From: Takakia lepidozioides
Taxonomy: Eukaryota > Plantae > Bryophyta
Assembly (NCBI GenBank): GCA_030704615.1
Contig: CM060732.1
Span: 42,656,001-42,720,000, forward strand
Direction of reading: 5' to 3'
Length of the DNA stretch: 64,000 nucleotides
Shown: positions 20,246-57,973 of the stretch, piece by piece
How the letters are laid out: every line of letters begins with the position of its first letter
Numbering within the stretch: position 1 is the stretch's first letter
Notes under the pieces: generated by a model
Databases searched by the model: none
Seen by the model: only the letters and a program-made list of their open reading frames with translations
What the model was told of the DNA's origin: nothing
Made by a program: the position numbers and the translations under genes

Positions 20246-20820
20246 TCACCCCCTCCTCTAGTGCCGAGTTCCTCGAGGAGTGATAAAATCTTGGACTTGC
20301 TTAGAGTTGGAGAAAATCCAAAATCCGACGAATGGTACTTGCCAAGTATTCGGCTCTTCGTTCTTGACTCAAATGATTTATAGGTCCATGCAACCATCGA
20401 TAGTGCACAACACCTTGAACTTGGGACCACGCAGTGATTTGAGTATTCTGATTTTCGAAGCTGGCTTCAAACATGATTTCGTTGCCCTCTGGGTCCGAAG
20501 CCTCAACCTCCAATAGAATTATCAGACTTCGAGTAGGCTCCACTTACCGTCGTATGGGGTCCAGACATCATCTCGAGAGCGTCGGCGTGATGTTGAGGGT
20601 CGTGAGAGTCGAAACGGCTGATCTGGTAGTTGGGTAAGCGACAACTCCAATGTATTTGGTTCCTGTGACTCCATGCTACCAGTACAAGATGCAAGAGTGC
20701 TGGAAGTGTAGCTATATATACTAATGTATGGTGCTCCTCCCTCCTTAGCGTGTATCAGGTACATTGAATGTAGAGTCTTCACCTTGAAGCTAACTTGGCT
20801 GACATCATCATTGTGACATC

Positions 20821-26365: not shown

Positions 26366-29282
26366 GGCGGGAGCTATGTGCATCAAGATCATCGCCACAA
26401 TGCAAGCATACATGGTACCCTTTGGTGTTTAGCCCCGAGCAAATAGTTAGTCATGTACTACACATCCCGTCATATTAGCAAAAATAAAACATTGTCATGT
26501 GCATGTGCCATCTACCCCACTGCGGTGCACAAGACTGTCGTCGCTACTTCAGTCAATCCCAATCCTCATCGATATTATCCGGCATTGACAAGTGAATGTA
26601 CGCAGGTTGTTCATGGGGAACATAATATACCTGGATAATCATGCATTGTCCAAAGCAAGATGCCTCTCATCTGAAAAGATTGTCCGGCCATAGGGTCAAG
26701 TGAAGCATCCAATGTCGGGACACCCCTCCATAGCTCCTTAAGTTCATCAACAAGAGGTCGCAAGTACGTGTCCATGTTTGCCACTTGTTTTTTGCCTATG
26801 AGACATTCACATCATTATTTCAATGCTCCACCAATATGCAAATTATATTACGAAATGAATTACACGTCTTATTCCATGATTATGTCACTCATCAATCTTG
26901 CATCTGAATTGCGTCAGAGATCAGAAGTTTAATGTAAAGTCCAAGGCAATAATAAACATGAAATGAGTACACTCACCTGGCACAATGGCAGCTAACATGA
27001 TGTGGCCTTTTTTAATTGAAAGATACGGAGGGATATTGTAATTCACCATGGTCACCGGCCAAGTGGAATGACTACATGACTGGACAAAGAATGGGTTGAC
27101 CCCATCCGAGGAGAAGCCGAGGTGGACATGTCATAAGTCTTCCAAGAGAAAAGGCCACATCTCTTCAATATGCCTCCATGCTTGTGAATCTTGTGGCCCG
27201 TACACCTTTCCCGGGGGGCTCCGATGCGAGGCGTGCTATCTCATGAGTCTGGCCAATTCGGGGCTTTGGTACTGTGTCCTCAATAGCGGGATGATCGGAA
27301 AGTAATGCATTTTATAGGATAAAATACCCCACGCCCCCCACATGTAATCATGATCCCATTAGCACACATAATACAACACCCTTATGCCTTTCCTTTTATG
27401 CAGCCTCTCCCTCATTTGGGCATGAATGGTCAAAACCGAACGTCGCTCCTTCCACTCCTCACTCACTCCTTCCAAAACCACAATCAGATCTTGCATGAGT
27501 ACTACTCTCTAAACCCTAAACTTTGTGGAATACACTTTACATGCATTGAGAAGATTAAAGAAAGTAATCTCCATGCGAGGGGGAATGGCGCTTATATCTT
27601 GCGTGGTATTTTTTTCCCTTGGACATCATCCCGATATCAGTCTTTCTAGCGCTCTGGGCACTTGGTGAGACGCGAATCATCTCCGTAGTATAGGGTTTTA
27701 TCACATGGACATGATGAAAAATCTTATAGCCCATCCCCAAGAGTCCAAGACTTCGCGGGGCTCTTTCCGCGACCGTGGCATCTTAGGTTTCAAGTGTGGA
27801 GCAAGAATATTGTCCGCAATAATTCGCATTATGGCAGACATCCCAACATTACTTATGCCAAATCGAATTTGAAGATTGAGCAAAAGTAAGATTGTTGAAA
27901 GTCGATTCACTTTTGCCCCTTCGTACAAGAGAGTTCTCGCCTCCCTCTCCATATCATTTGAAGGGGCCATTTCATGATCATCGATTGGCCGGGTTCCCTC
28001 TCCATGGGATGCATCAGCGCCCACATGATGCATTAAGAGATCCTCCATGGCTTGCACATCCTCCTGGTTAATTTCATGCTCATTGTTGTTGTCACTATCA
28101 CTGTCATTGTCATCGTCATCATCGTCCGGTACTGTGGGAGCGGCGTCTTGCCCACGGCTCCCGCCTGATGTACTTGGGTTGTTTTCGGATGGGGTGCCAA
28201 GAGAAAGGACGGGAAAGGATGGACAAAGTTCTGATACGAACATACGGACATATATTATAATGTGTCATTGCAATCATACAACTCATTATAAGTGAAATGC
28301 AAACAACAACCTTCAATGTGTGTGTGCATCAAATATGTCATTCAATAATTACATGTTTGTGCGCAACGTACACGCATACAAAGTTTCAATCCCAAACAAA
28401 ATCATTTGCCCCCAATGACGCAGTCACCCTACCAACCAATTTTTGTTTATTAATGTGAAAGAAAATCCTCTCATGCCATTGCACCCATCAAACGGATGTG
28501 GCTCAAGCTTCAACTTTTCCTACATTTGCTTAAATATGTGTGCAACGCCTGTATAAAGATCCAGCAGAAAAAAAAAAAAACATTTGCCTCCCCAACGATG
28601 CACTCACCTTTGCACCAATTTAGAATTAAATCGAATTTAAATAATTTTAAAATAAATATTTGCATTTAGAAAATATATGATTGCGGTTTTGAAGGGCGTA
28701 ATGATTTTATTCTTAGCTCTATTTTGTTCAGTGACATTGGGCTTTGCACCACTACATCCATGCAAAAAACTGGACAAAAGAAAAATGGAAAAAAAATAAG
28801 TGTGTTTCTAGGGTCACTTTTGCAAAACTCTCTATAAAGAGTGCATGAAGTTGAAAATAACTCAATTTTGGAGTGCAAATGAGAGAACAAAATCTGGTTA
28901 TGGGTCCAAATGACTTTTGTTTACTCCCAAATTTTGCATGCACATTGCATATGCTATCATTAAAGCATATGACTTGAAGATGGAAAAAAAAAAAAAAATC
29001 ATGTGCAGGTGAAATGTAATTTTCCGTCTCTACGACACGTAGCTGCGTTCCACACTAGAATGACCCATTGAATCAACTTGGTTCAAGCTCATATTTGGTC
29101 CACATGTGCATAAGTATGTTTAGATCACATATGCAAAGATGCAACCTACACGAGCAACAAGAAAAATATTTACATCAATCGATTAATCGGATGTATACAA
29201 AGTACATCATGAGAATATCTACAATGCCCCTCTACGCGATCCCTGTCTCAAATGAACCCTATTTCTATCATACACATCCCAC

Positions 29283-30205
29283 TCACGCTGTAAAGGTCCC
29301 AATCATCCGGGAGAACTCGTATGATGCAAATAGTTCGCTGTCAGCCCTAATAGTCCTACTAGCACATGTCATCACAAACATGTGCATCCCCTCACATTAT
29401 ACCGACGTATGACCACAAAAGCTCTCATGCCCATCGCTTCGTTCGTCCCATACTACATTGGTTCTCCTAGGATGACCAAAAGAACTGTTGACCAGCCCGG
29501 CAACATTGCCAAAGATGTCGGGGTCACCATCACAAAATCTGATCTCAATGGGAGACAACCCCCGTCTACGTACATCCTGTCCGTTGACACACAAAATGTA
29601 GGGTAGGATGTATGGGGCTTCGAGGCGTAATGTACGGAACTCCGCGGAGGTGTAGTATGGACCGTAGTAGGGAAACAAGTCCACCATGTTGTTTCTCCGA
29701 GGAGGAACCACAATATCATTGACCGTGAATAAACCATAGCAGGGTCTGTAGCGGCTCTCATAACATACCGTCTCCCCCAATACTCGAACTCCACATTTTC
29801 TCGGATGGGTGTGGAAGGGTCGAGATGATTCCCCCAACAGCCGAAGGGGAGGAACCTAGGGTGAAGCCGACCCCTCCTAGGGGTTCGGGGGGCACATGCA
29901 CGTGGAGGTGGAGGTGGTGGAGGTGGTACTGCTGGCGGAGGAGATGAAAGTGGAGGTGGTTGAGGATGTAATGCCGAAGGTACAGCCGGGGGTACAATGT
30001 CCGGATCAGGCAAAGAAACAGACGGGGGAGGCCACAATCAGGGGGACAGCCTGAGGAAACTGGAGGGGGGGGGGGGGGTTGGGCCTGCTTGTCGCCGGCC
30101 ATAACGCCTACGACACCTACGATACCCCTCAACCCTACGCATCTCATCTACATGCTGCTGGGGGAACTAACTGGTCACATCGGACACATCATGTGGTACA
30201 AATTC
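29283..30205 (-). pseudogene. Pro-rich linker plus SET-domain-like coding exon within the CACTA
   Basis: CYGLFTVNDI...FPYYGPYY...DGDPDIFGNVAGLVNSS...[TAA]...FVMTCASRTIRADSELFASYEF matches the ordered SET motifs GxGLF / YxG / (RF)xNHS / ELxxxY. Confidence 0.65.
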
Positions 30206-30412
30206 TGCAAGTAGACCGGCGCGAAATGCCTCAAGTGCAATGTGATTGCGAGCTTGGGCATCAAGTCATGGCTGCAATATGAGTAGTGAACGACGCATCA
30301 ATACTTATGTCGTAATTTGGATTCATGTATGCTTACCAATCATACTATATTATTAGATAAACCTAAATGTACCTTAAGTGAATGTTAATGAGACGGGTGG
30401 GAAAAACACTCA

Positions 30413-30805
30413 CCTTTGCTGCATCCGCAATATTGTTCTTATTGTGATTTTTTCAACAACATGCGGTCGCCGCCTCGGTGGTCTGGTGCCGCCGGCGGGT
30501 CCGTTCCAACACTTAGTGCACCAACACTCAATCCTATCGGGGGGGTCAAAGGTGGACGTGGTTGGACGGGGTGGCCCGCGAGGGGGCAACACACGGCGCG
30601 CCCGACTCGATCCTGGAGTGTCAACATCCTCCGCATCAACTAAAATTTGGTCCCGGTCCCTTCTACGATTGTGTTCGGCAGCCTGTGTTGGATTAGGTGC
30701 AATGGGTGGCTCCTCGCCACGAAAAATGGTCGCTCTAGGGCCACGATCGATATGTGGTACTACCTCCCCATCCTCAAGGGAGACGGGTTGATGTTTCCTC
30801 ACCAT
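30413..30805 (-). CDS. Putative first exon of the CACTA transposase gene (CxCxxC transposase-associated motif)
   Basis: ATG-started ORF with IECWCTKCWN, ending at an AAG|GTGAGT donor near 30412. Confidence 0.5.
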
Positions 30806-31965
30806 CGCATCCTAATTAACACACACCACCAGCACTTTCATTTCTCAAAAACCGTTGGCGAAAAAACCCTATGCCTCAGCCTCGAGGCTTTCAAAATTGG
30901 TAACCAAAGACGGAGCATCCCTATGGTGCTAGAGAGCCCAAGACAATAAATCCTTCCTCATGTTCTATCTTCAGGATCATGCCCACACCATGGAAAAATT
31001 TGTTGAGACCCAGCGCTTTGCGATTATCAGATTGAACCACATTTAGGGTATGTGAATCCTAATTACATCGTTTATCCTTTTAGCCCCAAGACCCACAACC
31101 AAAACTGCCAATCCAAAACCCAGCACCATAAAGAAAAGCAAAAACCCTAACCTAGGACCAAATGACCAAAAAAAAAAAAAACTAAGAAACCCAAAAGGCC
31201 CTAAACCCTAAACCCAGAAAGGCCAGCCGTTGCCTCCTGCGACACCCTCGCGTCGCATTTGGCAACGCATTTTTTTTCAAATTTCTACCTGGGGGTCGCA
31301 CCCCGCGACGGCTTTCCGTCGCGGGAGGCGACGTGGTTTTTTATTTATGGGGGTGGGGGTCGTAAGCAGCGACGGCCCGCCATCGCAAATACAATTTTTA
31401 ATTTTCAAAAAAATGGCGGGGCACAGGCGTGCGACGGCCGAGCGCCGTGCCTTTTTTTTTTCCCTAAGTGCTTGAAGCACCTATTTCCCCTCCCGTTTTC
31501 GTTTGTTCTTTGGGAGAGAGGTAGTTCAGAGAGTGGGGTTTATGGTGGAGGAGAAACGCACCTGCTGCTAAGCCCGAGGTGGTCGCAAGGCCCCAAGGAG
31601 TCTGCCCCAACGCCGCTCCAACACCCAAGGTAAGCACCACCTCCTCCCTCATTTTCTCTCTTGCTTTCTTGCCCTAAGCATGGGCTGATGTCTCTATCCC
31701 TTGTGTGGTAGGAACGCCGCGCAGAGGCACGATCTAAACGAGCTGAAGAGAAAGAGAGCCATGGTGAGTGGGGGAGAGACGCCCTGCAACGGCGAGGACC
31801 CGTGCCGTTGGTAGCTGCGACAGCACCGCAGCAGCTCACCTGAAGCACCAGCAGCCGCAGCAGCAGAGGTAGGTCAGGGTGGGGAGATGGTCTATGGTCT
31901 GTCTTGTCATGTGGGATCAAGGGAAAGATGTCGAGAGTTGTCCATAACTTGTATGTCACATCAAA

Positions 31966-32000
<35 letters not shown>

Positions 32001-32469
32001 GAAACAAAAAAAATAAAAATAAAAATAAAAATTGGGGGGGGAGGGAGTTACTGAGCAGAAGGGGCTGGGCTTTTGGCTCAGTTTCAAGACTTTTTAAAGT
32101 TGGTAAACAAAGGTACATGCACAATTCCCTTGATAGATTTGAAGAGAGCGTCTCTTTGGTGTGAGAGAACCTCGGACATTAGAAAATGAATATTGTCTTC
32201 AAATTGCCCACACAACGGGCAATTGCACTCTCCATTTCCTCTTTGCTTCTGTTTACTGTTCAAAGGTAGTCTTTATGCTTTGAGTTTAAGTTTCAGTCTA
32301 ATGTCGTTGGGGCGGGGGCTCGCGACCCCCATACCACACATTTTTGCGACGTCATTTTGGCGACGCCCATGCGACTGCCGGGCGTCGCAAATTTGGCGCT
32401 TGTCGCGTGCCCGAAATGCACGTTTTTCCGACGCTGGGGCATGGCCGATGATGCCCAGGCGTCACAAAG

Positions 32470-33401
32470 GCCCCCTTTTTCCTGTGATCTTCTTCTCCGC
32501 AATAGAGGCATAATCCATTCGGGCGCCATCTTTGTTTTTCTCGTGGCCTCAATGGTTTGAATCGGACAACATCAATCTGCATAGGATCACTACCGGATTT
32601 CTGATGGATCATTGTGTTTGGTGTCGTAGTAGCAGCGGCATGATGCGTCGTGGACCATCTAGATCGCTTCTCTTGACATCTTTCGAACAAACGATTATCG
32701 CATGCAATGACTTGGGTGATGAATTCACTCAGTGTACTCACGTTTGGCATTGTCAGCAACAAATCTTTTACATCATTTTTTAGCCCACATTAAAACTGAC
32801 TAATGAGGCTCTTCTCATTCCAGTTGAGGTCGCACGCAAGTTGTCGAGATTCGGCAACATAAACAGAAGCAGAACGTGCTCCTTGTCGAAGATTTTGCAT
32901 CTTTGTCTCTGCAACTCTCTCTCTATCATTCTCTCCAAACGTTTCAGTGAACTCGGACATGAATGCTTCAAAATTATATAGTAAATGCGAATTTTTTTCT
33001 AATAGCGGTACAAACCAAGATAGGGCAGTGCCTGATAGAAGGGTGCCCACAAATCCCACTTGAATACCTTCATTGGGGTAGCGTTGTGGATGTAGTCGTA
33101 GGAACAGTCGTACTTGTTGAACAAAACCGCGAAATCTTGATCTCGTCCCATCAAATTTCTTGGGAATGCCGATCTTTGATTCTCTTGTAATCTGTTGAAG
33201 ATGAACCGTTGCAGTAGGAGCTGTTGCCATAAGGACTCGTATGGTTGAAGATCCATTGTTCGACTCTTTTAACTCTAAAATTTGTTGTTGCAAATTGTGG
33301 AGAGCGTTGTCAAGATTTTGAGACTGATTAGCTTGAAGTTCTTGCATCTGGAGCTGAAGACTTTGCAATGTGACGACCATTTCGCCAAATGTGCCTTCCA
33401 C
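32470..33401 (-). pseudogene. Chromovirus gag with zinc knuckle
   Basis: PKKFDGTRSRFRGF..LLSGTALSWF..LRQG, DPMQID, and CLYCGEEDH truncated by the CACTA. Confidence 0.9.
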
Positions 33402-33439
33402 CTTAACTAACTAAGGAATAAATTTCAGTCTCACCAAAT

Positions 33440-33997
33440 TGTCAAGGACGAGAACATGATTGAACACAAACAAGATATTAGACTAGAGGTACAAGACTAG
33501 ACAAAAAGTCAAGGTCGGCGTGGCTGAATGCATGGTGGGTAAACATGAATCAAGATGATTTTTATAACAATCGACAAGAGTACAAGATACTGAAACTCGA
33601 CTCGAATACATGAATACTGGAAACTGGACTGAGGTATCAGATATTGGAAACTGGACTAGAGTACTGGAAGCTGGACTGAGTACTGGGACCGGGAACAAGA
33701 GTAGCTTGAACTTGTGTTGGCGAGATTGAAGAGTGTCCAGTCTCGCCTCCTATATATACTGGCTACTAGGAGGTTCCCTAAGAGGCTTCCCCAAAGGAGG
33801 TTTCTTGATGGAGAAGTTTCATCCAAAGGAAGCTTCTTCAGCAATTTCCCAAGTTACTCTTGGTAATTTGATAAACTCCCGGTAACTTGGTAACTAATGG
33901 TAAATCATGGTAAGTCATGGTAACTTTTGGTAACTTGATAACTTGGTACCTTCTGGTATTTACTCCTGGTAAGTTCCTCTCGGCTATGTCCGTGACA
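33440..33997 (-). repeat. 5' LTR of the chromovirus (TATA at ~33751-33758)
   Basis: Direct repeat of 19685-20245 with TG..CA ends. Confidence 0.95.
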
Positions 33998-38946: not shown

Positions 38947-41450
38947 CTACCCATGTGTTGTATCCCGCTGCAAAAGAGTATCGACCTCGTTGAAACTCAT
39001 AGTGGCCTGGTGAATGAAGTTGTCACGTTTGGGATCGCAAACCATCCTCCTCAAAAATATGAAATACAAATGTTTGTAGGGTATGAATTTACCTCTCTTG
39101 CCCAAACTGGTTGATAGCATATTCACAAAATCAGGACATGTGCAATTGGGGAAATTGGAAACCGTGATGTCGTAGGTCCTGTCATGAACAGCAGATGTGG
39201 AAGTGATGATTGTGAATACCCGACCATATCCTGGATCGGGTACTTCCGTGGTGCTTCCGACACGAGCTTGGAGCATTCTTGCGGACTCCACTTTGCCAAA
39301 GTGTTCAGCGGTTGGAGGGAAACGCCGAACGAGCTTTCCATCTCGTTTGGTTGGCCACAAGTCAGGATTTGCCGGGGGGACCCGGGAGGACGCAGGGAGT
39401 AGTAGCACATGCATGGAGTTTGGGGTTGTCTCGCAAGGGAAAAAACCTGCCTCCTCCAGCATTTCAATCTCCTGAAAGCTGAGATGTGTTCCCACCTTCA
39501 CGGGCCAAACGGTTGGAGGAGATGGCTTCATCACTACGGAAGGACGCACAGTTCCATGCACACATCTGGCACAATCATCTGCGCAGAACCAGAACTTGTG
39601 GTTCTTGGCTTCTGGTTGACCGTATGGACGCATCAAGCCCGTGAAAGTCGGAGCAGGAGTTCGGGCACCACCTCTGGATATAGATGAAGTGCACTTCTCG
39701 AAATTAGTTGCCCTGATCGCTGTACATTTCACACGAGACCCGACACTTGTGCGTTCTATGTGCCAAACGTGGTCGGGGCATGCGGACTCAAGCACATCAA
39801 GGGGGTGTTTCTCTCCTGCACCATTTCAGTGGCACGGTTTGATGCTGGAGCTTGCCGTCGTGTTGGAGGTTCCTCCACAATGGAGGTTCCGGACACGGAG
39901 CTGTCATGCAGGGGAACACGAGGCTTCGAGAAGTTATCACGGTCTGCCCTGTGGGAATCTGAATCCGAACCAGGTGGAGTGTTCAATTTCCTCTTACAGG
40001 AGCCGAATCTCTCCTTCCCTTCAAGATGTGGAACTCTAGAAACAAGTGGCGTTCCCTGGGCATACATGCTCACCGCCCGTGCTATCTTGATTGGATCCCC
40101 AGATCTGTTTGCAGCACGCAACATCAACTCCGATTTGTCCGGACCCTTGCCACCAACCCCACCTCGTAAGAAATCACGGTATCGGGTTTGTTGTTGCAAG
40201 GCACGTATCAAATCATCTGTTGTTGCCACATACAAATCCCGACCTCGTTTCCCAGACTGCTGCAACCATGCATTGTGCACAGTTTCTGCCAAATTGCAAG
40301 ATGGCATGTCTGCCATTTCCTCAATGGACATGTTCTGCAAAGAGGATAACCACACTTCAGAATAGTGCACAGGAAACAACATAAAGAAAGCAATGAGTCA
40401 AAAATATGGAAAGCAAATGTATGAATAAAGCATGAAATAGAAGCCTCGTACCATTGTCATGGCTGCTCCCCACTGTCTATACCGGAAGTGCCAAAACGCC
40501 AGCCAATCTTCCAATGCTCTCATACTCTCAAGTGATGCAGCTCCAGAAGAGAACCACCAGGCACGAATTGTCTGGAACAAAGTGTCCGCCTCCTTCATTG
40601 TTCTAGCATCTTTGTACTCTTTGCACAATTTACGGTGCTGAGTCTGCATCTCTGGTTTGATGTCCGACTTTGTATGTTTTTCCAGAGATTGTGTCCAATG
40701 GAATAGACATGTACGCTCTCTTCCTGGCATAGGCACTTTTGGGTCGCCCGATCCGAAGACAATACGAATAGCATTGAAATTTGCTTGAGCACTATCCGCC
40801 ATGAAACCTGCGAAATTTGGAGATGGCAGCCCATGGCAGCCCATGACACGTACCAGGGAATTCCACATGAGCTTCTGGGATTCCGTATCCTCGGATTGCA
40901 TGTCACAAACTGCAATTGTCATAACTCGTTGGTACACTGGATCGTAGACATGACAAGCCATTGTCGTCCAATCCTTCACTCGTTTCACATGATCAAACAT
41001 AAGAAAATAGTTCTGCAAGTCCCCAGTCTTCTGCATCCGCTTCACGAGGCTAACCCCACTGCCCTCCCCAACAGTCGACATTTTGAAAAGAAAAACTTTG
41101 ATGGCACCTTGACCTGGGAATACATTGTCCTGGATGTAATCGTACTTGCTCAGTCGTTTCAATTCCAAAATATTGTCTATGTAGCCTCTGATCCCAGAGC
41201 CCATTCTCAATGCATTGATCTGATGCCGAATGTTAGGTGAACTTAAAGTGGAGAAATGATCCATGACCAGGTCCAATGCTGCACCGTCAAGTTTAGTCCC
41301 CACAGAATCTCCTTCACTCAAAATATGGCTTTCCAAGAAGGATTCATATTCGAAATGATGACGATCCCGAAGATAAGCAGGTCGACAACGACTTTTCATG
41401 TGAGTAAGTGCTAAACCCTCTTTGGGAGTCATACTCAATTTCTCGATAAC
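38947..41450 (-). mobile_element. MULE transposase copy c: DDE core plus SWIM finger, intron ~40336-40451, one frameshift
   Basis: MFDHVKR (D), FMADSAQ (D), RTCLFH (CxxH), CNLAETVH (E), and CTCPDF...IPYKHLYF (SWIM-like). Confidence 0.85.
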
Positions 41451-42429
41451 ATCAAAGTTACAATAATAACTTTTTCAGGCTGTCTTTCAGGAAAGCCAGC
41501 GGTGGATCTTCAGGAGATACAGTCATTTCTGGCGAGTCTGTTTTCGACAGCCCCCTTTCCAATTTTCTGCTCCCTGTTTATGCCGAAGCAATGGCACTTC
41601 ACGCGTCCGAGTCCCTATCCCCTGACTTTTTAGTGGCCAGCCGTAGGTGTATCCAGCGTGGATCCGGTGTTCTTAAATACTTAGACTTAGATGCAGAGGA
41701 AGAGGGGATACATTGTACTGACTCTGAGTCAGACTGAACTGTATTCTTTTAATATTCATTTTCATATTATCTGGTAAACGTTGAATCCCCTTACTCTACC
41801 GTAGTTGTTCCTTTAGAACAAATAATAATCACAGAATCAACTTTCGTTTAAATTGCTATATGTATGAATCCATCTCACAAACCTTCCTGACTCTTCTCAT
41901 ATCCATTGTGCATTCATCTACACTGTATTCATGCGTGCTCCATTCATGAAAGCTTCCTTTGTACAACATCCATTGTACATTCATCCTCTGTACTCTTTAA
42001 TCCACCCCACAAACCTTCCACACTCATTTCATATACTTTGTGCATTCGTCAAAAGATTTGGTCATGCATCTTCCTGTCATGAATTTTTGTCATTGCTCAA
42101 CATCCATTATACATTCATCCATTTTACTCTTATCCATCCGTCATTCATCCATCTACATAGATTTTTCAAACTCATCCATCTGTTTATCATCCAACTGTAC
42201 ATTCATCCATCATTTATTCAATGCCTTTTATTATGTCGTCCAGCTTGTTTCCGCGGTAAAGGGTGCCAATCCGCGGGAATACACTCCACTTCTTTCTGGG
42301 TGCGTGGTGACTCGGCCTCCACGTGTGATGACGTGGACTGAGCCCCGTGACGTGGCATTTGCGCAAGGTGACGTGGCGTGAGCGCAGTCGCGCTCACGTG
42401 ACCAGGCTCACGCCGAGGCATCCCTGAGT

Positions 42430-46729: not shown

Positions 46730-47212
46730 ATGGATGCCAAAAGTGTGTTGATCAAAACGGTGTTGATACTTCTATGTCTCATAGTTTCCATAATCCCAGC
46801 TAAGAGTGCTGATTGTTGTTTTCCAAATACCAACGGGGGTTGTTGTTTATATCAATCAACCAGCCTAAATAGTCAAATATACTACCTAAGTAGTCCGTCT
46901 TCGACATACAATCTTGCCATGCAAAGTGACTGCAATTTGGTGTTATACAAGATAGCTACTGGGCAAGCACTATGGAGCAGCGACACATATGACAAAGGTT
47001 CCAACTGTTACGCTTCTATGCAAGGTGATGGAAATTTGGTGGTTTACAATGGAAACGGAGGTGAGCTTTGGAACACTGGTCCACATACTTGTCCACAAGG
47101 AAATGTACAAGAATTCATTCTTGAGATACAAGATGATGGGAATCTTGTTATTTATTGCGTTAGTCCCTCAATGAACAATCCTGTGTGGAGTACTGGAACA
47201 AATGGTGAATAA
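46730..47212 (+). CDS. Secreted GNA-related (bulb-type) mannose-binding lectin, intronless
   Basis: Signal peptide MDAKSVLIKTVLILLCLIVSIIPAKSA; three QxDxNxVxY motifs (QSDCNLVLY, QGDGNLVVY, QDDGNLVIY); WS(S/T) motifs. Confidence 0.93.
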   Translation: MDAKSVLIKTVLILLCLIVSIIPAKSADCCFPNTNGGCCLYQSTSLNSQIYYLSSPSSTYNLAMQSDCNLVLYKIATGQALWSSDTYDKGSNCYASMQGDGNLVVYNGNGGELWNTGPHTCPQGNVQEFILEIQDDGNLVIYCVSPSMNNPVWSTGTNGE

Positions 47213-48119: not shown

Positions 48120-48783
48120 CGTAAGGGTTGAAGAAGAAAGTAGGCTCTCCTAGCGTGGGCTAAGGGCCAAGGAGTCTGGCTCAATAGAACACAATGGGAA
48201 CAAGAGATGAGATGGACGAGTTAGACAACCATCTTATAAGTGTACAAGAATTAGAATGTCTATGTTGTGCACCTAAGCATCGTGCCACAACATACATCGT
48301 TGTCCAACCACACTTCCTAGCATATAGTCCTAGAAAGCCACGCCACAATGATACGGAAATGGTGAAAAGAGGATAAACCACTCTATTATGTTATATAAGT
48401 CAAGCCAATGGCACCTTTGCTAAAGGACTCCACCATACAGACCTCACCCACTCTCCATCTCAAGTACTAGAGCTATGGCGGCGAGAGATGCCTCGGAAGG
48501 CTCGACTAAAATAAGACGATCCTGCCTACGTCTCATGTGGAGATAACCTCCCCACGTCCCAAGTGAGGTTCGCCACCTCACTTGGCACATGGAACCAAAT
48601 GAAGTCCCAATGCCAACAAAATACAAATATAAATGTATAATGTCCTAATTAGCTAGAAATAACTATTTCTAACTAATCACAAACAAAACCATGACAGCTG
48701 TCGTGCACCTAAGCATCGTGCCACAACATACATCGTTGTCCAACCACACTTCCTAGCATATAGTCATAGAAAGTCACGCCACA
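48120..48783 (-). repeat. Putative 3' LTR region of the DNMT-gypsy with an 85-bp internal direct repeat
   Basis: Repeat at 48263-48347 and 48699-48783, both TG..CA; PPT GCTAGGGGGGCGAT abuts on the minus strand. Confidence 0.6.
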
Positions 48784-49046
48784 ATCGCCCCCCTAGCTGG
48801 TGATTAAGTCCCTCTAACATCGGATAGCTTGCAAGTATCCACCCCAATAAGATCATCGCTTGGTCTTCAATCGCACAAGTCCCAACACCTGAAATCGGTA
48901 GATCAAGAGGCCGGGTGCAAATGTAGCCCCATCGTTAGTCGCCTTCATGCAATCCATGATCTTCAGTTGAGTATCCATGGCATGGAAGCCCCACTAACTA
49001 GACATTGGATCACTTGTCCGCCTCACCATTGTCATGCCCACTACCT

Positions 49047-49200
49047 CTATCCAAGGCATCGTGGACACAACCATTCTCCGATAGAAACCTCCTCAAGTGG
49101 CGGTGTCAAGCATCCCATGTGCCACCCCCTTGAGCATTTGTCACATACCAACATGGTTGCGGCGCCACCAGCATGCCCACATAGTATGCAACGCAACCCT
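49047..49200 (-). other. PHD finger at the integrase C-terminus
   Basis: CILC..MLVCDKCSRGWHMGCLTPPL..GEWLCPRC, a canonical C4HC3 pattern. Confidence 0.92.
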
Positions 49201-52200
49201 GCAGGTACCACTGCAAGGTTGAGATCTATCATCCCATCCACATGTGGAAGGTGACATGGCGCACATGGTCCTTCAATACCATGCCATCTCGATCCTCCAG
49301 AATCAACACCTCTCTGACCCTTAGAATCACACGTCCTGTTGTGACATCCAAGGTCGTAGGTGCTGTCTGCTGCAGATACACATAGTCCCCAGGGTGGAAA
49401 CGCCGAACACTTGGCCAATATCCCCCTCCACGTATAGTGACGTACCTCAATGTGTCTCGATGTTGGGCAATAGCAAGGTTCTCAAAAACCATAGGCATGA
49501 CTCTCTTGAACAACTTTGCCCGCTGGGCACATGCTTGTATACACATCCGGATCATCAAGATTGAGAACTATTGCAGCCTCCTTGGAAATAGATGCAGGCA
49601 AATCCGGCTCTCGGCCGAAGAGAAGAAAGTAAAGTGAGAAGGAGGCAAGTGAAGCTTGTTTGCTGAACCTATAGCCCATAGCTAGCCAAGGCAGTTGAAG
49701 GTCCCAATCTCCTAGGTGTCCATTCTGCAAACCGTACTTGCGCAAACCTCTCTTGACTGTCTGAACAATTCTCTCCGCCAAGCCATCAGCCTCCGGATGA
49801 TCCCAAGAAGTAGTGCGGTGATATATCAAGGCTTGCTCACACAAAGCCTGAAATTCCCCCAAGAATTCTCTCCCCTGGTCCGTGAGTACCTTGGCTGGAG
49901 CACCAAAATGGCTAAGCACTCGATCTAATAATGCATACGCAGCCCCCTCACTTCCCTTGTCAGGCAATGCCACCAGTTCAATCCATTTGGAGAAATGTTC
50001 CACCATCACCAGCACATACTTGTTATGGCGAATTGTCAGTGGCAATGGGTCTGCGAAGTCAAGACTCCAATGATAGCCCAAACCCATAATGGGTAAATGA
50101 TGCAATTGTGGAGTAGGGGCGTTGAAAGAAGCCTGCACTCTGTCACACACCATGCACCTTGCCACTAACTGTTGCACATCCGTATGCATGCCCCGCCACC
50201 AATACTGCCCTTGCAGCAAACTATGAGTGCGTCGCACCCCAAAATGTCCCAACTCCTCATGGGCATGGCGTACCAATCGCGCTCGTTGTGTTGGATGAGG
50301 CACAATCCTCACTCGTCCATTCTCCCATACCCGGAGTATGTGAGTCCCTTCCCACTTGAACCTCTTGGCTCATTGTAGGACCCGATCCCTCTCCTTAGCA
50401 GTCACAGTGGCTGCTGTCTCTCCGGTACAAAGGTATGCCAACACTGCTGCATCTTCATGCACATCCTTAGCACCACCAAACTCCTTATTAGTCTCTGGAT
50501 TGTCATGCACGCTATCTACATGACCAATCGCATGGGATGAACCAGCTTGAGCTCCCATTGCTAGAATGCACAAAAAGGCCGATGCATGCCATCCTGGCAC
50601 CATCTCCTCATCCGTCTCACCATGCCACCGAGCTCCAGTATCATCATGCTTGCTCGTGCATGGATTATGACTCAATCCATCTGCATCCCCATTGACAATA
50701 CCGGCTCGATGCACCACCTAGAAGTCGTACTCTTGAAGCATAAGTGCCCACCGTGCAAGCTTCCCTGTAAGCTTGTCTGACTCCATCAACCACTTCAATG
50801 GTTGGTGATCCGTGACAATGGTGAAGAGATTGCCATAGAGGTAGCATTTGAAATGTGCCACTGCCCATACCGCAGCTAGACACTCCCCTTCATAGGAACT
50901 ATACTTCGTCTCGGCATCATTGTTCGAGCAGCTAACATATGTTACTACGAACTCTCTTCCCTCATCATCCACCTGTGTGAGCACTGCTCCAATCCCCAAC
51001 ATACTCCAATCCGTATGTAGCTGGAAAGGCCGCTCCCAATAGGCCGCCTCAGAATAGGTGCAGAAGTCAATCGAGCCTTGAGTTCCTCAAAGGCTTCCTC
51101 CTGCTCCTCCTCCCACTGCCACTCCTCACCCACCTTGGTCAACTTGGTAAGAGCCTTTGCAATGCTGCTAAATCCCTTGACAAACCGTCGATAGTAGTTT
51201 GCCAATCCCATGAAAACACGAACTCTGCTCACATCCATGGGGTGTGGAATGCATGCAATGGCGTGCACCTTTGTCTATTGAACACCCAATCCTCCAGGGT
51301 ATATCATGTGGCCCAGATACTCAATCTGATTGTGGAAGAACTTGCACTTTCCGGGGTGCAGTTTCAACCCGTGCGCTCTCAAGTGCTCAAACACCACCTA
51401 AAGGTGTTTCTCATGCTCCTCAACCGTAGCACTAAAGTCAATGATGTCAATGTAGCACCGGACAAAGTCTAGCCCCGCGAGAATCCTATCCATGACTCTC
51501 TGAAACTCTGCAGGAGCATTCTTCAACCCAAACGGTAAGAACTGCCATTGGTACAAACAATCATTCCCATGTTGGTCAATCCCCCAAAATGCCGTCTTTT
51601 GCTTGTCAGCCTCTTTGATTGGCAATTGGTGGTAACCGGATCGCAAATCCAATGTGCTAAACACCTTTGCATGCCCAATGGCATCAAAGATCTCCTCTGG
51701 AGTTTGCATGGCATATCTATCGGACTTAGTCTGACGGTTCACAGGACGATAGTCCCCACACATCCTTCTTTCTGTCCAATTGCCATAGATATCCTTCTTA
51801 GCTGACATCACCGTTGCCGAGGCATACTCCCCGCCTGACAACTCCACCAATCCAGCTTCGAACAACTCCATAGTCCGTGATTGGATCAATGACCTCTCCA
51901 TGTCACTATACCGGTAGGGCCTTTGAAAGATTGGCGTGTCACTTGCCAAATCAATACGAATCTCCTGACCCTTCAAACTCCCCAAATCCTTCAAATTGAA
52001 GGCAAAACAATTTCTATAAGCCCTTAGAAATCGCTGGATCCTCCGTCTCTTTCCTCCAGTGACTGTAAGTCCAACATTTGGTTCCCAATTGTCCTCAGTG
52101 ATTGCAACCTTGGGTACACCAAGCTTGGAGGTAGGAGACGAATCCTTTGGTTGCTAGATAACAACCTCTTGGGCCTTGTCCGCCCAATCTGACTGTGGCG

Positions 52201-52509
52201 TAGCCTCCACTTGCTCCGCCATAGCCACCTTGAGAAATCCTCTGAGCAAGAAACATTCTCAACCTCTTCAAAAATCTTGGCCACCTTGGCCTCCAACTGA
52301 TCCTCAGTCCATGGCTCTCCCCACTCCTCATACTACTGCTTGAGAGATCCAATGACTATCTCTTTGCGCATATCATCCCACTTTGCTATGGGTGTTTGCA
52401 ACCCACGATCCTGTGCTCACCCCCACTCACTGCCTCAACCGTCCCGGTTGGCAGGGAGGGTGTACCATCCAATGGGAGTGCAGAAGTAGCCATCAATGCT
52501 TGCAATCTC

Positions 52510-53500
52510 CGTTACTCAGCCATGCATAAGCCAATGACCCATGTCAAGCAATTTAGATCCATTGCTTGACCCAACACTTGGCGGCGTGATGCCTCTAACA
52601 GAGCTGGCACATCTGTAGTGCCGGTGGCAAATCCCATTGTCTGCTCTCGCTCATCCGCATTGGGCTCCACCAATTGCTGTAGCACACTGTCCCAAATCAA
52701 CCCAGGACCATTGTCTCGGAAAGCATGAGACGAGGGGAAGCTCATGAGTGTAGGTAAGGCCATATGTGGCTGCCCCACTCGATTGATCACCGCCAGAGGT
52801 GGATGGTCATCATGTCGCACCCTCTTTGGTTGCCTCCCTTGGTCCAAAATGCCCTCAACCGTGAGATTGGGTGGCCGTTGAATGGAATCATATGCTCTCT
52901 TGAGCAGCTCTGGTGGTGCAAGATTGGTCCACCATAATCGAGGTCGATGCGCGCGTGATCCCACCGCTGCTGCATCCAATAGCACCGCCGATCCAATCCA
53001 AGACCGCACCCGATGCACACTGGCCATAACCCCGGCCCGAGAATCCCCCATAAGAGGAACACTCTCCAAGATATAGCCTAGAGGTTGCACTTGCCTTGTC
53101 TGCAAGTCCTGCAACACTCGCAACATCTCCCAAAATAAATGCGATCGTGCATCATGCAAGCCATTCCCATGACCTGCGGGAGAGTGTCATTGACAAGGCC
53201 ATCCGGCTATCACCAAGTCAATGACACCATGCCAGTCCAAATCATCCGCCCCCAACAAGGTAATGTCTGCTTGCAAGGCCTTTTGATACCCTTGTATTGC
53301 TGAGAGAGGCAACAAATCAGGATACCGGTGTGTGAGCAAGGTAATGTGGCACATGGAAATACGCCGAACAATCTTATCATTCTCAATTACAAGTACTTGC
53401 GTATTCTAATCCCTGCTTGCAACACTCCCGTAAGCCCAATGCTCATGCCTCCAAACAAGTCTAGCAAACAAATCCATGAGTTAGGTAGTTGCCAGGTAAT
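52510..53500 (-). pseudogene. DNMT3/DRM-like cytosine-5 DNA methyltransferase domain inside the gypsy pol
   Basis: Motif I LLDLFGG, II IEND, III ADI, IV DLVIAGWPCQ, V LFWE, VI YILESV, VIII AHRPRLWWTNL, IX EREQTMGF, X RRQVLGQAMD. One frameshift and one stop. Confidence 0.9.
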
Positions 53501-56500
53501 GGGCCTGTGTCCTAAGGAGCTAATTCAGGAGGTCCAAGTGATGTCACTGAACTCCCCTCACTCACCAATGGAAAGGCCTCCTGCCATGCTTGGTGCATAC
53601 ACTCGCCTGCTACTTGATGCAAATTCCCAACCATACCCCACAGTGGAATATGCATAGGCACATGAGGAAGCAAATCAGCCTTGTATGCCAATTGTTTGTG
53701 ATCATCAGGTGATGGCCTATCATCGACATGACTATTGCCCTCCAAGAGCTCACCACCCCAAGCCACCACCCCTGAAAATGTAGCAAATGTGGGCATCATG
53801 TTCCTATGATCCACCACTATATTCCCAATAAACTACACTGGAAGCAGTGCATGTCGGCCATCTCCTGACTGCCATTCTGGCCTGTATGATGCCATTTCCT
53901 CTCCCAAAAGTCCAAAGTAAATCCCATGGGGTATAACATCCCCCCACCAACAAGCACATCATATGACATCGCGTCCGTAGCAATGGCTTTAGCTCTTATG
54001 ATGGAGCCATCCGTAGGATGATCCGGCTGCAATCGAATGAAGAGCTCATGGCATGTAATCCCTCGCGTCTTTTCTGAACCACCCAAAGATGGGCAAGGCT
54101 CCAAATCTGCCTCTGTAAGGCCCAAGCCTGCAATTGCTGCTTTCCCCAACATCAATGGTTGTGCTCCCGAGTCCAACAAGACCTGTAGTGGCCTATACCT
54201 CCTCCCGGCTGGGCCACCTAACTGAAACATACTATCATGATTTTCCACCAAGACTACCCCAGGAATCACCATACTGCACAATGGCTGGCCTAGCTGGCAA
54301 CTCCTGCAACCTTGCAGCTACTGCTTGCCATGGCATAGTTGTGGCTGTCTTCACCCTTGAATCCAGGGCATTCATGCATTGTACCTTATCCGCTATCCCC
54401 ACAGATAGTGCTGATGCATCACCACTCTCACAGAGTGCAGCTGCCAGTCTAAACACTGCAGCTGGCCGCATCCCTGACATTGCAATTGTCGTGGCAGAAA
54501 ACAATGGAGCTTGGCAAATTGCCATAGCCGCCCCCAACAATGTACTAGCTGCACCTTGCTTTGCAGCACCACCCACTGGCATTTCCCGAGCCATACCAAC
54601 TTTCCCCAATGGTACTCGTGGCTCTACCTATGACACACTTTGGCGAGCGGGTGCCATCGATGGCGTAGTTGACAATGTCTCAGCCAATGTAAAGGACTGT
54701 GGAAGCCTTGTCTGACGACTTGCTTCCCCTTTTTGTGGATCAAAATCCACATCCGCTCTTCTTGGCTCAGGAGTACGAGTTGCTGCTCAAGTGACAACAG
54801 CTGCAGAGTCCACATGCAATGGTCCTGCAAGTGCGGCTCCACACATGAAGCCCATACCAATCTGGTCTTTCCTAGGCATAGGAGGTTGTGCAGGCGGGGC
54901 TTGAACCTCAGGCCTTGGAGCTGATGCAATACGAGTAGTGGCCATGGTAGCAAGACGTTGCTCTAGCTGGGCAAGCCTATCCACTATGCCTTGGTCATGA
55001 CCTTGACCTTGACCTTGTGCTCCTTTTTTGGTTACGACCTCCACCGCGACCTCTGCCTCTTCTACCTCTCTGGACTACATTGCCTCGTCCTTGGCCATAC
55101 CCTTGGAACTGGCCTGGCCGTAGCTCAGGATGCAAGTCATAACAATGGGCATTTTCATGCCCATACTTGCCACAATGCCCACACTGTAGTTGTGTAGGCT
55201 GTGCCTGTGCCGGCCCTTTGCCTCTCTCCGGGCAGTCTCTCTTAACATGGGGTCCTCCACAATCCCAACATGTCACACCCGACTGTTGTTGGCTTGAGAT
55301 TGAAGGAAGCGACCTCTGCAATTGAGATCATTTCTGTCTTTCCTTGGGCTTTGCCTGAGCCCCCTTGTCGCCTTGAGCACGTTGGGGTAATGGTTGTTGT
55401 TGGCTAGAAGCTCCACTTCGTTGTGTCTCCTTACCAAACCCTACCATGACCACTCGCTCCTCTACCATATTGAGCTGTATCCGCTCTGCCAGCAAAAACA
55501 TATTTGCTAAGGTGGGTTGGGCCACTTGTAGGAGAGTTGCATCCCGTACCCTTCTACTCAACTCCTTGTCGAATATCCCATACCAGAAATGGACTGCTTG
55601 AGTTTCCGTAACCCATTGGGTTATATTTATCAATCGCCTCATGCGCGTGTAAGCCTCCCTCAAACTCTCAGTAGGCTTGCACTGGAACTCTTGCAAGCTC
55701 CGCAATTTCACCCTCGGCGAGAATCCTCCTAACTCTGAGTCTGAACCTCCATCAGAAGACACTGAAGGTGAAGGTGGCCTAAACCGCACACCTCGTCTTG
55801 TATACCTACTAGTATCGCTGGTGCTCGTACCGACATTCTCTTCAGCAACTGGTGGCACCTCCGTGATGAAAACTCGCACTCAAACCAGCTATCAACTTGT
55901 TTCTAATCCCCCTTTCCAGAAGTAAGGTGGTAGAGAACCTGTTGCGGCTTATGGTTTGGAATACTAGGTTTCCTAACCTGAACCTGCACCTGCACCTGCA
56001 TCCACCGCAGACACTTATATGGTCTGCTGGTCATCAACCCAGCCTCACCATAAGAGAAACAATGATGGTCTGCTGGTCATCACCCCAGCCTCACCACCGA
56101 CAACACGCTCTAGGATTGGCCGACCACAATATTTCCGGCACAACCACCTATAAAAACAAGCGCCCAAACCAAACTAGCATGACGCACAGTCAAGCATGCA
56201 TGTGTGGGAGGAGGATCCAAACACAAAAAACTCAAACAACAACACATCCCACAGCTTAAATCAATCGATCTCCTTGTGGCTTCAATAAACTTGCAAGATG
56301 GCCAAGTCTCTATCCAAACTAGCTTTGCCTCCGCTTACGGAAAAGCTTTGGCCTACAAGAATGATGTAAGACTATAGAGAAGGGAAGCTAAAGCAATCTC
56401 TAAGCCCAAAATGCTCTCATCCCATTACTCCCCCTATCGTCACACTCACTCTTGCTCAAGCAATAGATAAGACTATCCTTAAAGAACCTCTCAAATAACT

Positions 56501-56559
56501 CTCAAGAGCCCTCAAATTATTGCCATGAACGTCTGAAATCTGCCCTCAATCAGCCCCTA

Positions 56560-57235
56560 ACATAGACCCACCGAGGTTCAAGAAGTTCGCAAACTTGGAC
56601 TCTAAACAGTCCACCAAAGGCCCTAGGCGCCCGCCAATTAGTGGCCTCCAAGGTCTCCAACCAGCCCTCACAATGGCTCCAGAAGCCTGCCAAATATGGC
56701 CTCCAATGACCTCCAATAGTCCTCCAAACAGCCCTTAAGAAGCTCCACAAATCTGCCAAGTATTGGCCTCCAAGGACCTCCAATAGTCCTCCAACAGCCC
56801 TTAAGAAGCTCCTCAAATCTGCCAAGTATTGGCCTCTAAGGACCTCCAATAGTCCCCCAAAGAGCTCTTAGAAAGCTCCATAAGTCTGCCCAATATGGGC
56901 CTCCAAGGACCTCCAATCGTCCTCCAACCAGCTCACAAGGCTCCACAGGCCTGCAAAACATTGGCCTCAAATGACCCCAAATAGTCCTTCAAATAGCCCC
57001 AAGCAAGCTCCACAAGCCTGCAAGATATTGGCCTCAATAGACCCCAAATAGTTACCTGCAAGATATTGGCCTCAATAGACCCCAAATAGTCCTCAAAGCA
57101 GGCCCCAATACATGCTAAGATATTGGCCTCAATAGACCCCAAATAGTCCTCAAAGCAGGCCCCAATACCTGCAATATATTGGCCTCAATAGACCCCAAAT
57201 AGTCCTCAAACAAGCCCCTTGAAGGCTCAAAAATA
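56560..57235. repeat. Tandem repeat of ~55-65-bp units (TATTGGCCTC.A..GACC.C.AATAGTCC)
   Basis: About ten visible copies upstream of the DNMT-gypsy gag. Confidence 0.85.
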
Positions 57236-57244
57236 TCCACAGTC

Positions 57245-57690
57245 AGTCGATTTTTCATCCGTCATTGACCAAATTTCATCCAAAACCGCAATTTCTCATC
57301 CGCAGGTCCGATATTTCATCCACCACGATAGTTCATCCGTTAGTGCGATATTTCATCCACTGGCGCAGTTTCATCCATCGCCGTGATTTTTCTTCCGATG
57401 GCACGATAGTTCATCTGCTGCCATGATTTCATCCGCTGACGCAGTTTCATCCATCGCCGCGATTTTTCATCCGATAGTGCGATAGTGCATCTATTGATGA
57501 GATTTCATCCGCTAGCGCAGTTTCATCCACTGCAACCGATTCTCATCTAGGAGCGCCTACTGTCATCCACTCGCTCAATAGTTCATCCGATGGGACAATG
57601 GTGGTGCTCCCAACTCTAAGATTGGTGAGTGGATGAATGATGGATGAATGTGATATGATAAAAATCTGGATGAAAGTAGAGTGGATGAAT
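57245..57690. repeat. TTTCATCC minisatellite, followed by inverted GGATGAA copies
   Basis: ~18-22-bp period at 57250-57590; GGATGAA cluster at 57630-57690. Confidence 0.8.
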
Positions 57691-57973
57691 GTAAAATGTC
57701 GATTCCAGTTCACTTATCGCGTACGCAAGGTAAAAAGTTTGAAGAGGGAAGAAGTTGCTTTAGAGAAGAGAGGAGGCAATGTTGCCTTCCGTGTACAATG
57801 GCCAATAGGTTTCATCTGCAGCAATCTCACAAGAGGGTTCATTCTCGGTCGCACCCCTTTCTGTGACCTTCCTATGTTGCATCTTGTGTTCCATCTCCAC
57901 TTAGTGAATTTGCTCGACCACATCACAGAGAGTCATTGCAATGGTATGTCTGAATGGCTACATGTCTAATTCT

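Follow-up and report, generated by a model that had tools for sequence, protein, structure and literature searches.

The window, a stretch of 64,000 nucleotides of Takakia lepidozioides DNA, was confirmed to contain a Ty3/gypsy retrotransposon on its minus strand from 48263 to about 57800, which encodes Gag, a protease, a DNMT3-like methyltransferase (DNMT), reverse transcriptase (RT), RNase H, an integrase and a PHD finger. The initial annotation had located the element at 48784..55900; it does lie there, but its true span is wider. On one side, a single-copy flank contig joins the element at 48269. On the other, read depth stayed far above that of the single-copy flank up to about 57800, which gives an approximate left limit. 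All features described here are on the minus strand. The 5' leader (55880..57800, boundary approximate) contained tandem arrays of about 66 nt at 56690-57228. The Gag region (54280..55879; 36-49% to the predicted protein P0001) possessed two zinc-knuckle-like motifs (about 55085-55279) and had no Pfam match above cut-off. The aspartic protease (53904..54269; 49% to P0001) contained LLDSGA at 54180-54166, and its Asp_protease_2 score was 18.2 bits, under the cut-off of 24.3. Beyond the DNMT domain were RT (51101..52003; PF00078), which was broken by stops and whose YIDD motif reads YIDI, RNase H (50721..51050; PF17917, 124 bits) and the integrase (49232..50366), which consisted of an H2C2 zinc domain, a DDE core and a C-terminal module. 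In the window translation, rve, Integrase_H2C2, RT_RNaseH and RVT_1 were each above their Pfam cut-offs. The structures nearest to the window RT were 4ol8 and the Ty3 Gag-Pol 7q5b (E 1e-25 to 6e-25, compared with 1e-6 for HIV), and that nearest to the integrase was also Ty3 Gag-Pol (E 6e-19). No tRNA genes were found within the 64-kb window.

The order PR-RT-RH-IN with a DDE integrase is that of Ty3/gypsy elements. Moreover, the relatives possessed TG...CA ends and 4-bp target duplications, of which the window copy keeps the right end only. However, two complete direct LTRs with a purine tract before the TG of the 3' LTR were not present. The element is enzymatically gypsy-like without canonical LTRs. 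Compared with intact relatives, the window copy is heavily decayed; the frameshift, the stop and the change of ENV to ESV noted initially are real, but that list was incomplete, as the count came to 12 stops and no fewer than 6 changes of frame.

The DNMT domain (52515..53524) was identified by PF00145, profile comparison and a structure model. The C5-methyltransferase motifs claimed earlier were all in place, with LDLFGG at 53464-53446, GWPCQ ending at 53190, ESV at 53066-53058, AHRPRLWWTNL from 52952 and GQAMD at 52571-52556. Its lesions were a frameshift near 53400, a stop at 53189-53187 and the ESV. With the broken stop read as X, PF00145 matched 52515-53405 with 40 bits (cut-off 22, E 4e-10); what follows the stop, taken alone, scored 13.6 bits, below cut-off. 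Motifs I, IV (PC), VI (ENV), VIII (RxR), IX and X followed each other in linear order, as in DNMT3, and the structure model (pLDDT 93) had a TM of 0.70 to DNMT3A. Of the earlier designation as DNMT3/DRM-type, only the first half is retained: the profile score was 76 bits to DNMT3A and only 37 bits to DRM2, and the circularly permuted motifs expected of a DRM were not found.

The C4HC3 PHD finger (49053..49199) matched PF00628 with 41 bits (cut-off 24). Its nearest solved structures were those of CHD4, KMT2D, PHF12, KDM5B/A, DPF3, PHF21A, ATXR5, UHRF1 and AIRE, and none of ING, BPTF and TAF3 was named among the 60 PHD structure matches listed. PHD fingers of the ING/BPTF type, which read H3K4me3, carry a Trp at the second position before the zinc His. 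This position was Gly in the window; among 55 related PHDs it was Gly in 49 and Trp in 1, which does not fit the ING/BPTF type. Membership of the window PHD in the class predicted to read the unmodified H3 tail is thus supported. The proposed resemblance to the ADD/catalytic pairing of DNMT3 is reduced to an analogy, because DNMT and PHD are separated by a stop codon and by likely protease sites.

The repeats of the family are arranged in the order A-coding-PPT-B-NN-A-B, in which the terminal repeat is split. In the window, repeat B2 (48263..48349) forms the right element end, terminates in ACA and was 97% identical to B1 over 87 nt. Repeat A2 (48350..48696, 347 nt) starts with TGT and aligned weakly to the peat-moss-type A, with a score of 66, where shuffled sequence reached at most 59, in an alignment that included the putative self-priming site. 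The spacer GC (48697..48698) lies between the CA end of B1 (48699..48785) and the TG start of A2, by which two attachment-like ends are abutted. A G-rich run (48786..48796) adjoins B1, is kept before B1 in related loci and presumably serves as the polypurine tract. The same CA-NN-TG layout was found in L002, L009, L012, L052, L054 and L060/L070; a further family, represented by L050, also had it. Among 15 loci with a mapped 5' A (about 13 independent insertions), none showed the alternative layout A-B-A-coding-B. By sequence matching, the window lacks the 5' A copy, any primer-site remnant and the left target duplication, and the similarity of its leader near 57930 to the moss leader was no better than chance, scoring 42 where shuffled sequence reached 58.

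Among relatives, 4-bp target duplications flanked all five independent two-ended insertions (L011, L038, L054, L060/L070 and L077). Troyka, considered first for the split repeats, has CG...CG ends, a 3-bp duplication and animal hosts (PMC12440569) and was ruled out by the TG...CA ends and 4-bp duplications found here. Phygy of REXdb is described as preferring NCGN targets (PMC6317226) and was not matched either, as NCGN occurred in 0/5 target duplications, the only feature by which it was judged. The A|B joints were flush in 4/5 elements, and L054 had a 19-nt filler at this joint. In L052, B1 and B2 shared 6 rare states, compared with at most 2 between elements, which fits the expectation that B2 would be remade from B1; any rare state common to B1 and B2 was found in only 2/5 elements. 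L038 (B only) and L052 (B-A-B) have one common flank; at least one of them therefore arose by later recombination between B1 and B2, and one-repeat circles are no longer supported as the origin of repeat-less A-coding-B copies.

Base pairing of 10-12 of the 12 nt that follow A with a site inside A, 31 nt behind TATAAA, was possible in 7 of 13 main-family copies, whereas 0 of 1480 control 12-mers matched with at most one mismatch. The site was lost in 4/13 copies and degenerate in 2, and it doubles as an arm of a local hairpin. Self-priming was not found in the L057-type family, the second one examined, whose copies are rearranged. Similar pairing of the RNA's initial ~11 bases beside the 5' repeat is described for Tf1 and Tcn1 (PMC7175516, PMC6317226); here it is deduced from the sequence. 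Different from the permuted repeat here, however, those elements have ordinary LTRs with terminal TG...CA, and Tcn1 belongs to the chromovirus clade, whereas the reader here is a PHD (PMC7175516, PMC6317226). Probably, the 5' end of the RNA primes its own copying at the site after A, the plus strand is primed at the purine tract before B, and standard LTR replication would then yield a linear cDNA flanked by B-NN-A, the natural ends of which would not be attachment sites. Given the split ends and the CA-NN-TG abutted within the repeat, integrase would therefore need an internal junction, probably that of a circle. If the linear cDNA were end-joined to a two-repeat circle and cleaved at the primer-side junction, B would shift to the right end and the observed layout would be rebuilt, a route that we consider plausible but fall just short of calling likely. 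Both junctions of a symmetric circle would be open to cutting, but a single permutation was seen, a bias that the model leaves without explanation. DDE enzymes act on abutted circle ends 2-3 bp apart in IS3/IS30-type insertion sequences and in the cleavage of foamy-virus LTR junctions. Those cases are bacterial DNA transposons or a retroviral side reaction, whereas junction cleavage would be the required route here.

DIRS/Ngaro elements use a tyrosine recombinase instead of a DDE integrase and are not known to make target duplications. The rve integrase and the 4-bp target duplications of relatives rule out that the element is one of them. Their mode of replication could nevertheless be shared: in the same family, with the same leaky stop, RNA would run through A2-B2 and template the A/B joint, the internal B/A junction would merely be the template that rebuilds both cDNA ends, and integrase would act in the ordinary way. 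That the layout equals that described for DIRS-type elements (PMC5890265), that a single permutation was ever seen and that four of the five A/B joints are flush would agree with this alternative. It leaves unexplained, however, why a purine tract stands right before B1 and a primer-like site right after A1, and the homogenised B1 and B2 of L052 also speak against it; we regard it as unlikely.

At the boundary between DNMT and RT, an in-frame TAG is followed by CAA CCA (52148..52156). This stop (52156-52154) is the state of the family and not a product of decay. Of 55 loci aligned, 5 distant rows were misaligned and left out; in the remaining 50, a stop occupied the same codon in 49 (38 TAG and 11 TAA) and was directly followed by CAA CCC in 46. 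The window and L001 read TAG CAA CCA, and a fourth family reads TAA CAA TCA/TTA in 6/7 loci. Hence CAA-YY after the stop was retained in four divergent families, compared with a background of 258 CARYY after 37,263 stop triplets, and the reading frame was maintained across the stop. In the host's own family, no variant reached 3% at the nine stop-context bases (277 and 181 contigs, one sample). Consistently, the predicted proteins P0001, P0002, P0004, P0005, P0007 and P0010 terminate 78-83 residues past the DNMT, and P0229, P0230, P0233 and P0234 are standalone, uninterrupted RT-RH-IN-PHD proteins of 1033-1083 aa. The single Pol frame expected earlier for PR-DNMT-RT was thus not found in the clade of the window, where the frame closes behind the DNMT; the DNMT is placed at the end of the Gag-protease frame, outside Pol. 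The stop is not universal, since DNMT and RT share one open frame in the more distant relatives P0214, P0064 and P0039.

UAG-CAR-YYA is the type I readthrough signal of tobamoviruses (PMC3542737). Given that the conserved stop with CAA-YY corresponds to this signal, the DNMT is likely made at the level of Gag, and programmed readthrough from the DNMT frame into the RT frame appears highly probable. The type I signal is also used for the envelope-like gene of SIRE1. The element shares with tobamoviruses the six-base signal, the in-frame continuation and the lack of significant 3' structure (z +0.2 to -1.6 in the 4 sequences folded here); the difference is that its stop separates Gag-PR-DNMT from RT in a retrotransposon. 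The peat-moss-type family, with CAA CCC, is one base off CARYYA and has an ATG two codons past the stop, which would permit reinitiation. The stop could also be a true one, with RT-RH-IN-PHD made by reinitiation, splicing or from a subgenomic RNA and the DNMT acting mainly in trans on host chromatin or competing elements. An ATG stands 2-4 codons past the stop in 2/4 families, a stop-separated gag-pol is described for Tca2, and no conserved RNA structure lies behind the stop. The window family and L001 have no ATG behind the stop, however, and the CAA-YY retained in 4/4 families and the frame maintained across the stop argue further against a true stop, which we consider quite improbable.

The DNMT is a family trait and not a one-off insertion. 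The catalytic motifs were intact in Marchantia and Calypogeia proteins and in most of 80 metagenome loci (PC 53/71, ENV 65/78, FGG 54/64). In loci found using a DNMT query, RT lay downstream in 64 of the 71 with room there and a protease upstream in 36 of the 52 with room there. dN/dS of the DNMT was 0.09-0.18 in 6 between-family pairs, indicating purifying selection. That the domain is a passenger, a recent single-copy fragment of a host DNMT3 or DRM gene, is hardly conceivable: nothing but the broken state of the window copy was found in its favor, and it is contradicted by these neighbors, by the dN/dS values, by relatives that extend to Closterium and Klebsormidium and by database searches in which 0 of 41 and 0 of 29 matches named a host DNMT3 or DRM.

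Those searches, in which a host DNMT3 outgroup was sought, returned retroelement proteins only, and the DNMT tree contains none from hosts. The tree was built with FastTree, is unrooted and includes 119 of 191 proteins, after those with less than 75% DNMT cover or without a neighboring domain were dropped. One side of 36 rows (SH support 98) contained the window, Marchantia, Calypogeia, Closterium and the K. nitens protein P0132. Close relatives of the abundant family occur in liverworts and peat moss. The proposed bryophyte lineage was thus upheld, with bryophytes as the nearest named relatives, and it is the same lineage as the charophyte elements. From its place on the same side as the Klebsormidium protein, the window element is the apparent land-plant branch of KnitGypsy-Dnmt3, described from Klebsormidium nitens (de Mendoza et al., 2018; PMC5890265), although P0132 is not necessarily of the published family. 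Similar to the window element, KnitGypsy-Dnmt3 is described as a gypsy element whose DNMT3-like domain is unpermuted, lacks introns and is under purifying selection, and whose repeats have a DIRS-like layout (PMC5890265). Furthermore, K. nitens has both the protease-DNMT protein P0132 and an RT-RH-IN-PHD protein, P0292. Different from KnitGypsy-Dnmt3, however, the hosts here are land plants, and the DNMT, which is in the Pol frame there (PMC5890265), closes the Gag-protease frame here, ahead of a conserved stop. Neither a PHD nor any analysis of target sites or priming was found for the gypsy element in the accessible parts of PMC5890265.

Taken as a whole, the model of a leaky stop, a DNMT at the level of Gag, methylation of the cDNA and an integrase that cuts the internal CA-NN-TG junction is one toward which we lean slightly. 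The first frame would give Gag-protease-DNMT, and readthrough would add RT, RNase H, integrase and PHD. Each particle would then hold the methyltransferase at Gag-like numbers, by which its own cDNA would be methylated. Perhaps, though we hesitate somewhat to expect it, new cDNA is marked by the DNMT and is already methylated like host repeats on entering the genome, while the PHD makes insertion at H3K4-methylated promoters less frequent. The retro-DNMT of Klebsormidium gave no methylation in yeast, a result that its authors themselves judged inconclusive (PMC5890265). More tentatively still, these elements might form a distinct gypsy-like lineage of green plants, from chlorophytes to bryophytes, with a permuted LTR and buried attachment sites, IS3-like circle-junction integration and, in bryophytes, a leaky stop that loads capsids with a de novo DNMT at Gag numbers. 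If so, incoming copies would be methylated beforehand and guided by a reader of unmodified H3, and at over a thousand copies per genome they could contribute cytosine methylation to Marchantia and mosses as a source so far unrecognized.

According to an opinion paper, land plants such as tracheophytes have no transposons that encode DNA methylases, these having disappeared on land (PMC6338049). The named relatives, which come from Marchantia, Riccia, Calypogeia and Sphagnum, show that bryophytes, one of them a genetic model plant, have retained such elements. No account of the bryophyte elements, the stop or junction integration was found in the literature searched; subscription journals, Repbase, theses, figures and bioRxiv supplements may hold some. 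If the junction model holds, its integration route is one not found for an LTR-type element in that literature, and software for finding LTRs will have missed these elements because they are without paired LTRs. Two other groups of gypsy elements are described with a chromatin reader, either a PHD or a chromodomain. Gypsy-7a_cRei of Chlamydomonas has ordinary LTRs and a PHD listed before integrase, with no DNMT named in the available text (10.1101/2022.06.16.496473). EpiLTRs also encode a cytosine methyltransferase, but their DNMTs are reported as sister to DNMT4 and occur alongside an adenine methyltransferase (10.64898/2026.05.21.726589). For the elements studied here, the position of the stop predicts the amount of methyltransferase per particle, by which the role of a retro-DNMT becomes testable.

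The element occupied positions 48263 to ~57800 of the window on the minus strand. Its domain order, from motif reading and a Pfam domain search, was Gag, two zinc-knuckle-like motifs, aspartic protease, C5 methyltransferase (DNMT), RT, RNase H (RH), integrase (IN) and PHD finger. Each motif listed in the initial annotation was found in the sequence, and the methyltransferase scored above the Pfam cut-off for PF00145 (40 bits) once a broken stop was read as X. The nearest solved structures of RT and integrase were those of Ty3. With 12 stops and at least six frame changes, the window copy is dead. The element is nevertheless real and is a land-plant branch of the known DNMT3-gypsy kind. In the available text of the sources, DNMT3-carrying gypsy elements were described for Klebsormidium (PMC5890265) and were cited in a 2026 preprint as 'streptophytes (Gypsy-DNMT3)', with a similar mention in PMC12344493. 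According to an opinion paper, land plants such as tracheophytes lack them (PMC6338049). Bryophyte copies, the stop and the end-structure mechanism described below were not found in the open-access article text searched.

The first protein search gave 41 matches, among them numerous Marchantia models, with identities of up to 66%, as well as Calypogeia and Sphagnum; an integrase search added Riccia, Closterium and Klebsormidium, and the representative library held 197 clusters at E ≤1e-30. Among 80 metagenome loci found with DNMT as the query, RT was downstream of DNMT in 64 of the 71 with room for it, protease upstream in 36/52 and PHD downstream in 25/33, while all three were present in 14 loci. 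The exceptional loci inspected were truncated, nested or inverted. DNMT is thus a family trait and not a one-off insertion. The main group of loci was named peat-moss-type, because past DNMT it was nearly identical letter for letter to the Sphagnum fallax model P0027. Contig depth summed over the coding region, which is not a copy number, was ~70,000–560,000 in the source species vs. 69 on the flank, a gap of three orders of magnitude. Six loci of a fourth family (L057, L059, L069, L072, L079, and L080) were rearranged head-to-head copies whose flanks ahead of the A repeat were identical; these copies were probably amplified inside another repeat.

An unrooted FastTree tree of 119 DNMT domains, all of retroelement type with no host DNMT3 among the rows, divided according to domain position. 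One side (36 rows, SH support 98) had DNMT before RT and included the window, Marchantia, Calypogeia, Closterium (P0063, P0075, and P0102) and Klebsormidium (P0132), in agreement with the proposed land-plant lineage of charophyte-type elements. The other side, a large sister group, comprised 82 rows with the order RT-RH-DNMT-IN-PHD, such as P0028, P0029, P0037, P0153 and P0065, the last named from Scenedesmus; no published description of this group was found. Since most proteins of this side start just ahead of RT and have no protease motif, their sequences hint that a break before RT may predate the position of DNMT.

A profile built from 25 relatives scored 76 bits against DNMT3A, 71 against DNMT3B, 39 against HhaI and 37 against DRM2, and the predicted DNMT structure (pLDDT 93) had a TM score of 0.70 against DNMT3A. 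Thus, of the DNMT3/DRM type suggested initially, the DNMT3 part held and the DRM part did not. The catalytic motifs prevailed among the 80 loci (PC in 53/71, ENV in 65/78). Between families, dN/dS of DNMT was 0.09–0.18 with dS near saturation, close to the 0.06–0.09 of RT (unsaturated comparisons only); within the dead family it was 0.6–0.9. Of the source-species depth at the ESV codon, 99.5% differed from the window copy; the family therefore carries the canonical motif, and ESV reflects decay of this copy, as first read. P0171 (1053 residues) carried a Trp-type PHD ahead of a related DNMT, with no retroelement domain detected, and is possibly a host or domesticated gene.

Two features alter the mechanism expected of such an element: a stop that is likely leaky, and split ends whose attachment sites lie internally. 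One check proposed at the outset was whether PR-DNMT-RT is one ORF. In the relatives, DNMT and RT shared a frame, but a stop lay between them ~80 codons past DNMT in 49 of 50 reliably aligned loci (38 TAG, 11 TAA; 55 were aligned, and five distant, misaligned rows were left out). CAA CCC directly followed the stop in 46 of them, whereas across all stop triplets of these loci CARYY came next in just 0.7%. The fourth family had TAA CAA TCA or TTA in 6/7 loci, with RT at equal distance; nine other distant loci gave no clear case of the stop context. In the host's own family, all variants were below 3% at the nine bases of stop and context (contig sets X1 and X2, from one sample, and X5, 13 contigs from a second study). 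Predicted proteins also break at this site. The window and L001, a separate family, had TAG CAA CCA, which matches the type I readthrough motif, given as UAG-CAR-YYA in the text available (PMC3542737). Because a conserved stop of readthrough-type context separates DNMT from RT, DNMT belongs to the Gag-protease product and is likely produced at Gag level, far more abundantly than RT and integrase. Three points speak against this reading: the main family has CCC where the motif has YYA, an ATG comes after the stop in two families, and P0214 and P0064 have open frames. For both P0016 (Gag-PR-DNMT) and P0234 (RT-RH-IN-PHD), the longest contig given is one of 8955 nt from NCBI, and the two proteins may be the two frames of one uninterrupted element. 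P0132 (marked partial), P0142, P0164, and P0305 end 12–13 residues past DNMT with similar C-termini, so a stop after DNMT may exist there too.

These elements have no paired LTRs. Loci L054 and L060/L070 had the layout A-coding-B-A-B, where A and B are the two parts of the split end repeats; the figure legend for KnitGypsy-Dnmt3 gives the same layout (2018, PMC5890265). A starts with TGT and B terminates in ACA; where B meets A internally, the joint read ACA-NN-TGT, both in the window and in six related insertions. All five insertions having both ends showed 4-bp duplications (TACA, TGTG, TCTC, CATA, and TGTT). A G-rich tract lay immediately before B1, the first right-end B. The window retained B1-GC-A2-B2 and the purine tract, and its 5′ A was lost. 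In 7/13 copies, the 12 nt past the 5′ A paired with a site within A that lies 31 nt past a TATAAA box, compared with 0/1480 control words. The priming arrangement proposed from this pairing resembles that of Tf1, whose self-priming is described as working by the same kind of pairing (PMC7175516, in part); self-priming was not confirmed in the second family examined. Standard LTR replication from the 12-nt site and the purine tract would yield a linear cDNA flanked by B-NN-A, in which the TG/CA pair would sit inside the repeat. The integrated form corresponds to this cDNA with its left B shifted to the right end, as would result from end joining followed by a cut at one inner junction. Support for this junction model comes from homogenised B1/B2 in L052 and from filler sequence where A meets B in L054; against it, the mirror permutation was not seen among related insertions, and three insertions were A-coding-B alone. 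The right flanks of L038:13482 (single B) and L052:8171 (B-A-B) were identical, so the A-coding-B copy sharing its flank with a full-form copy is a product of later recombination. This pair is the split-repeat equivalent of solo-LTR formation.

The nearest structures to the PHD finger were CHD4, KMT2D, PHF12, KDM5B/A, DPF3, PHF21A, ATXR5, UHRF1, and AIRE, most of which we take to be readers of the unmodified H3 tail. H3K4me3 readers have a cage Trp, which was absent in 54/55 related PHDs. We infer that the PHD may target insertion of this element. PHD-carrying gypsy elements have been described, among them Gypsy-7a_cRei, which is reported to insert mostly between genes (10.1101/2022.06.16.496473); PHD fusions with mobile elements are described as common (10.1101/2021.11.30.470311, in part).

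The window also contained a second gypsy element (19685–33997) with ordinary LTRs 90–92% alike and 13.75 kb apart, other sequence nested within, and a chromodomain plus SH3 at 20821–21381. An RT fragment (PF00078), presumably LINE-like, and long transposase-like frames were found at 7290–7820 (+) and 38947–41474 (−); the single transposase-like frame searched had no Pfam match. Finally, a gene for a B-type mannose-binding lectin was located at 46730–47212 (+), ~1 kb off the right end of the element; it has no introns, and the N-terminus of its product is signal-like.
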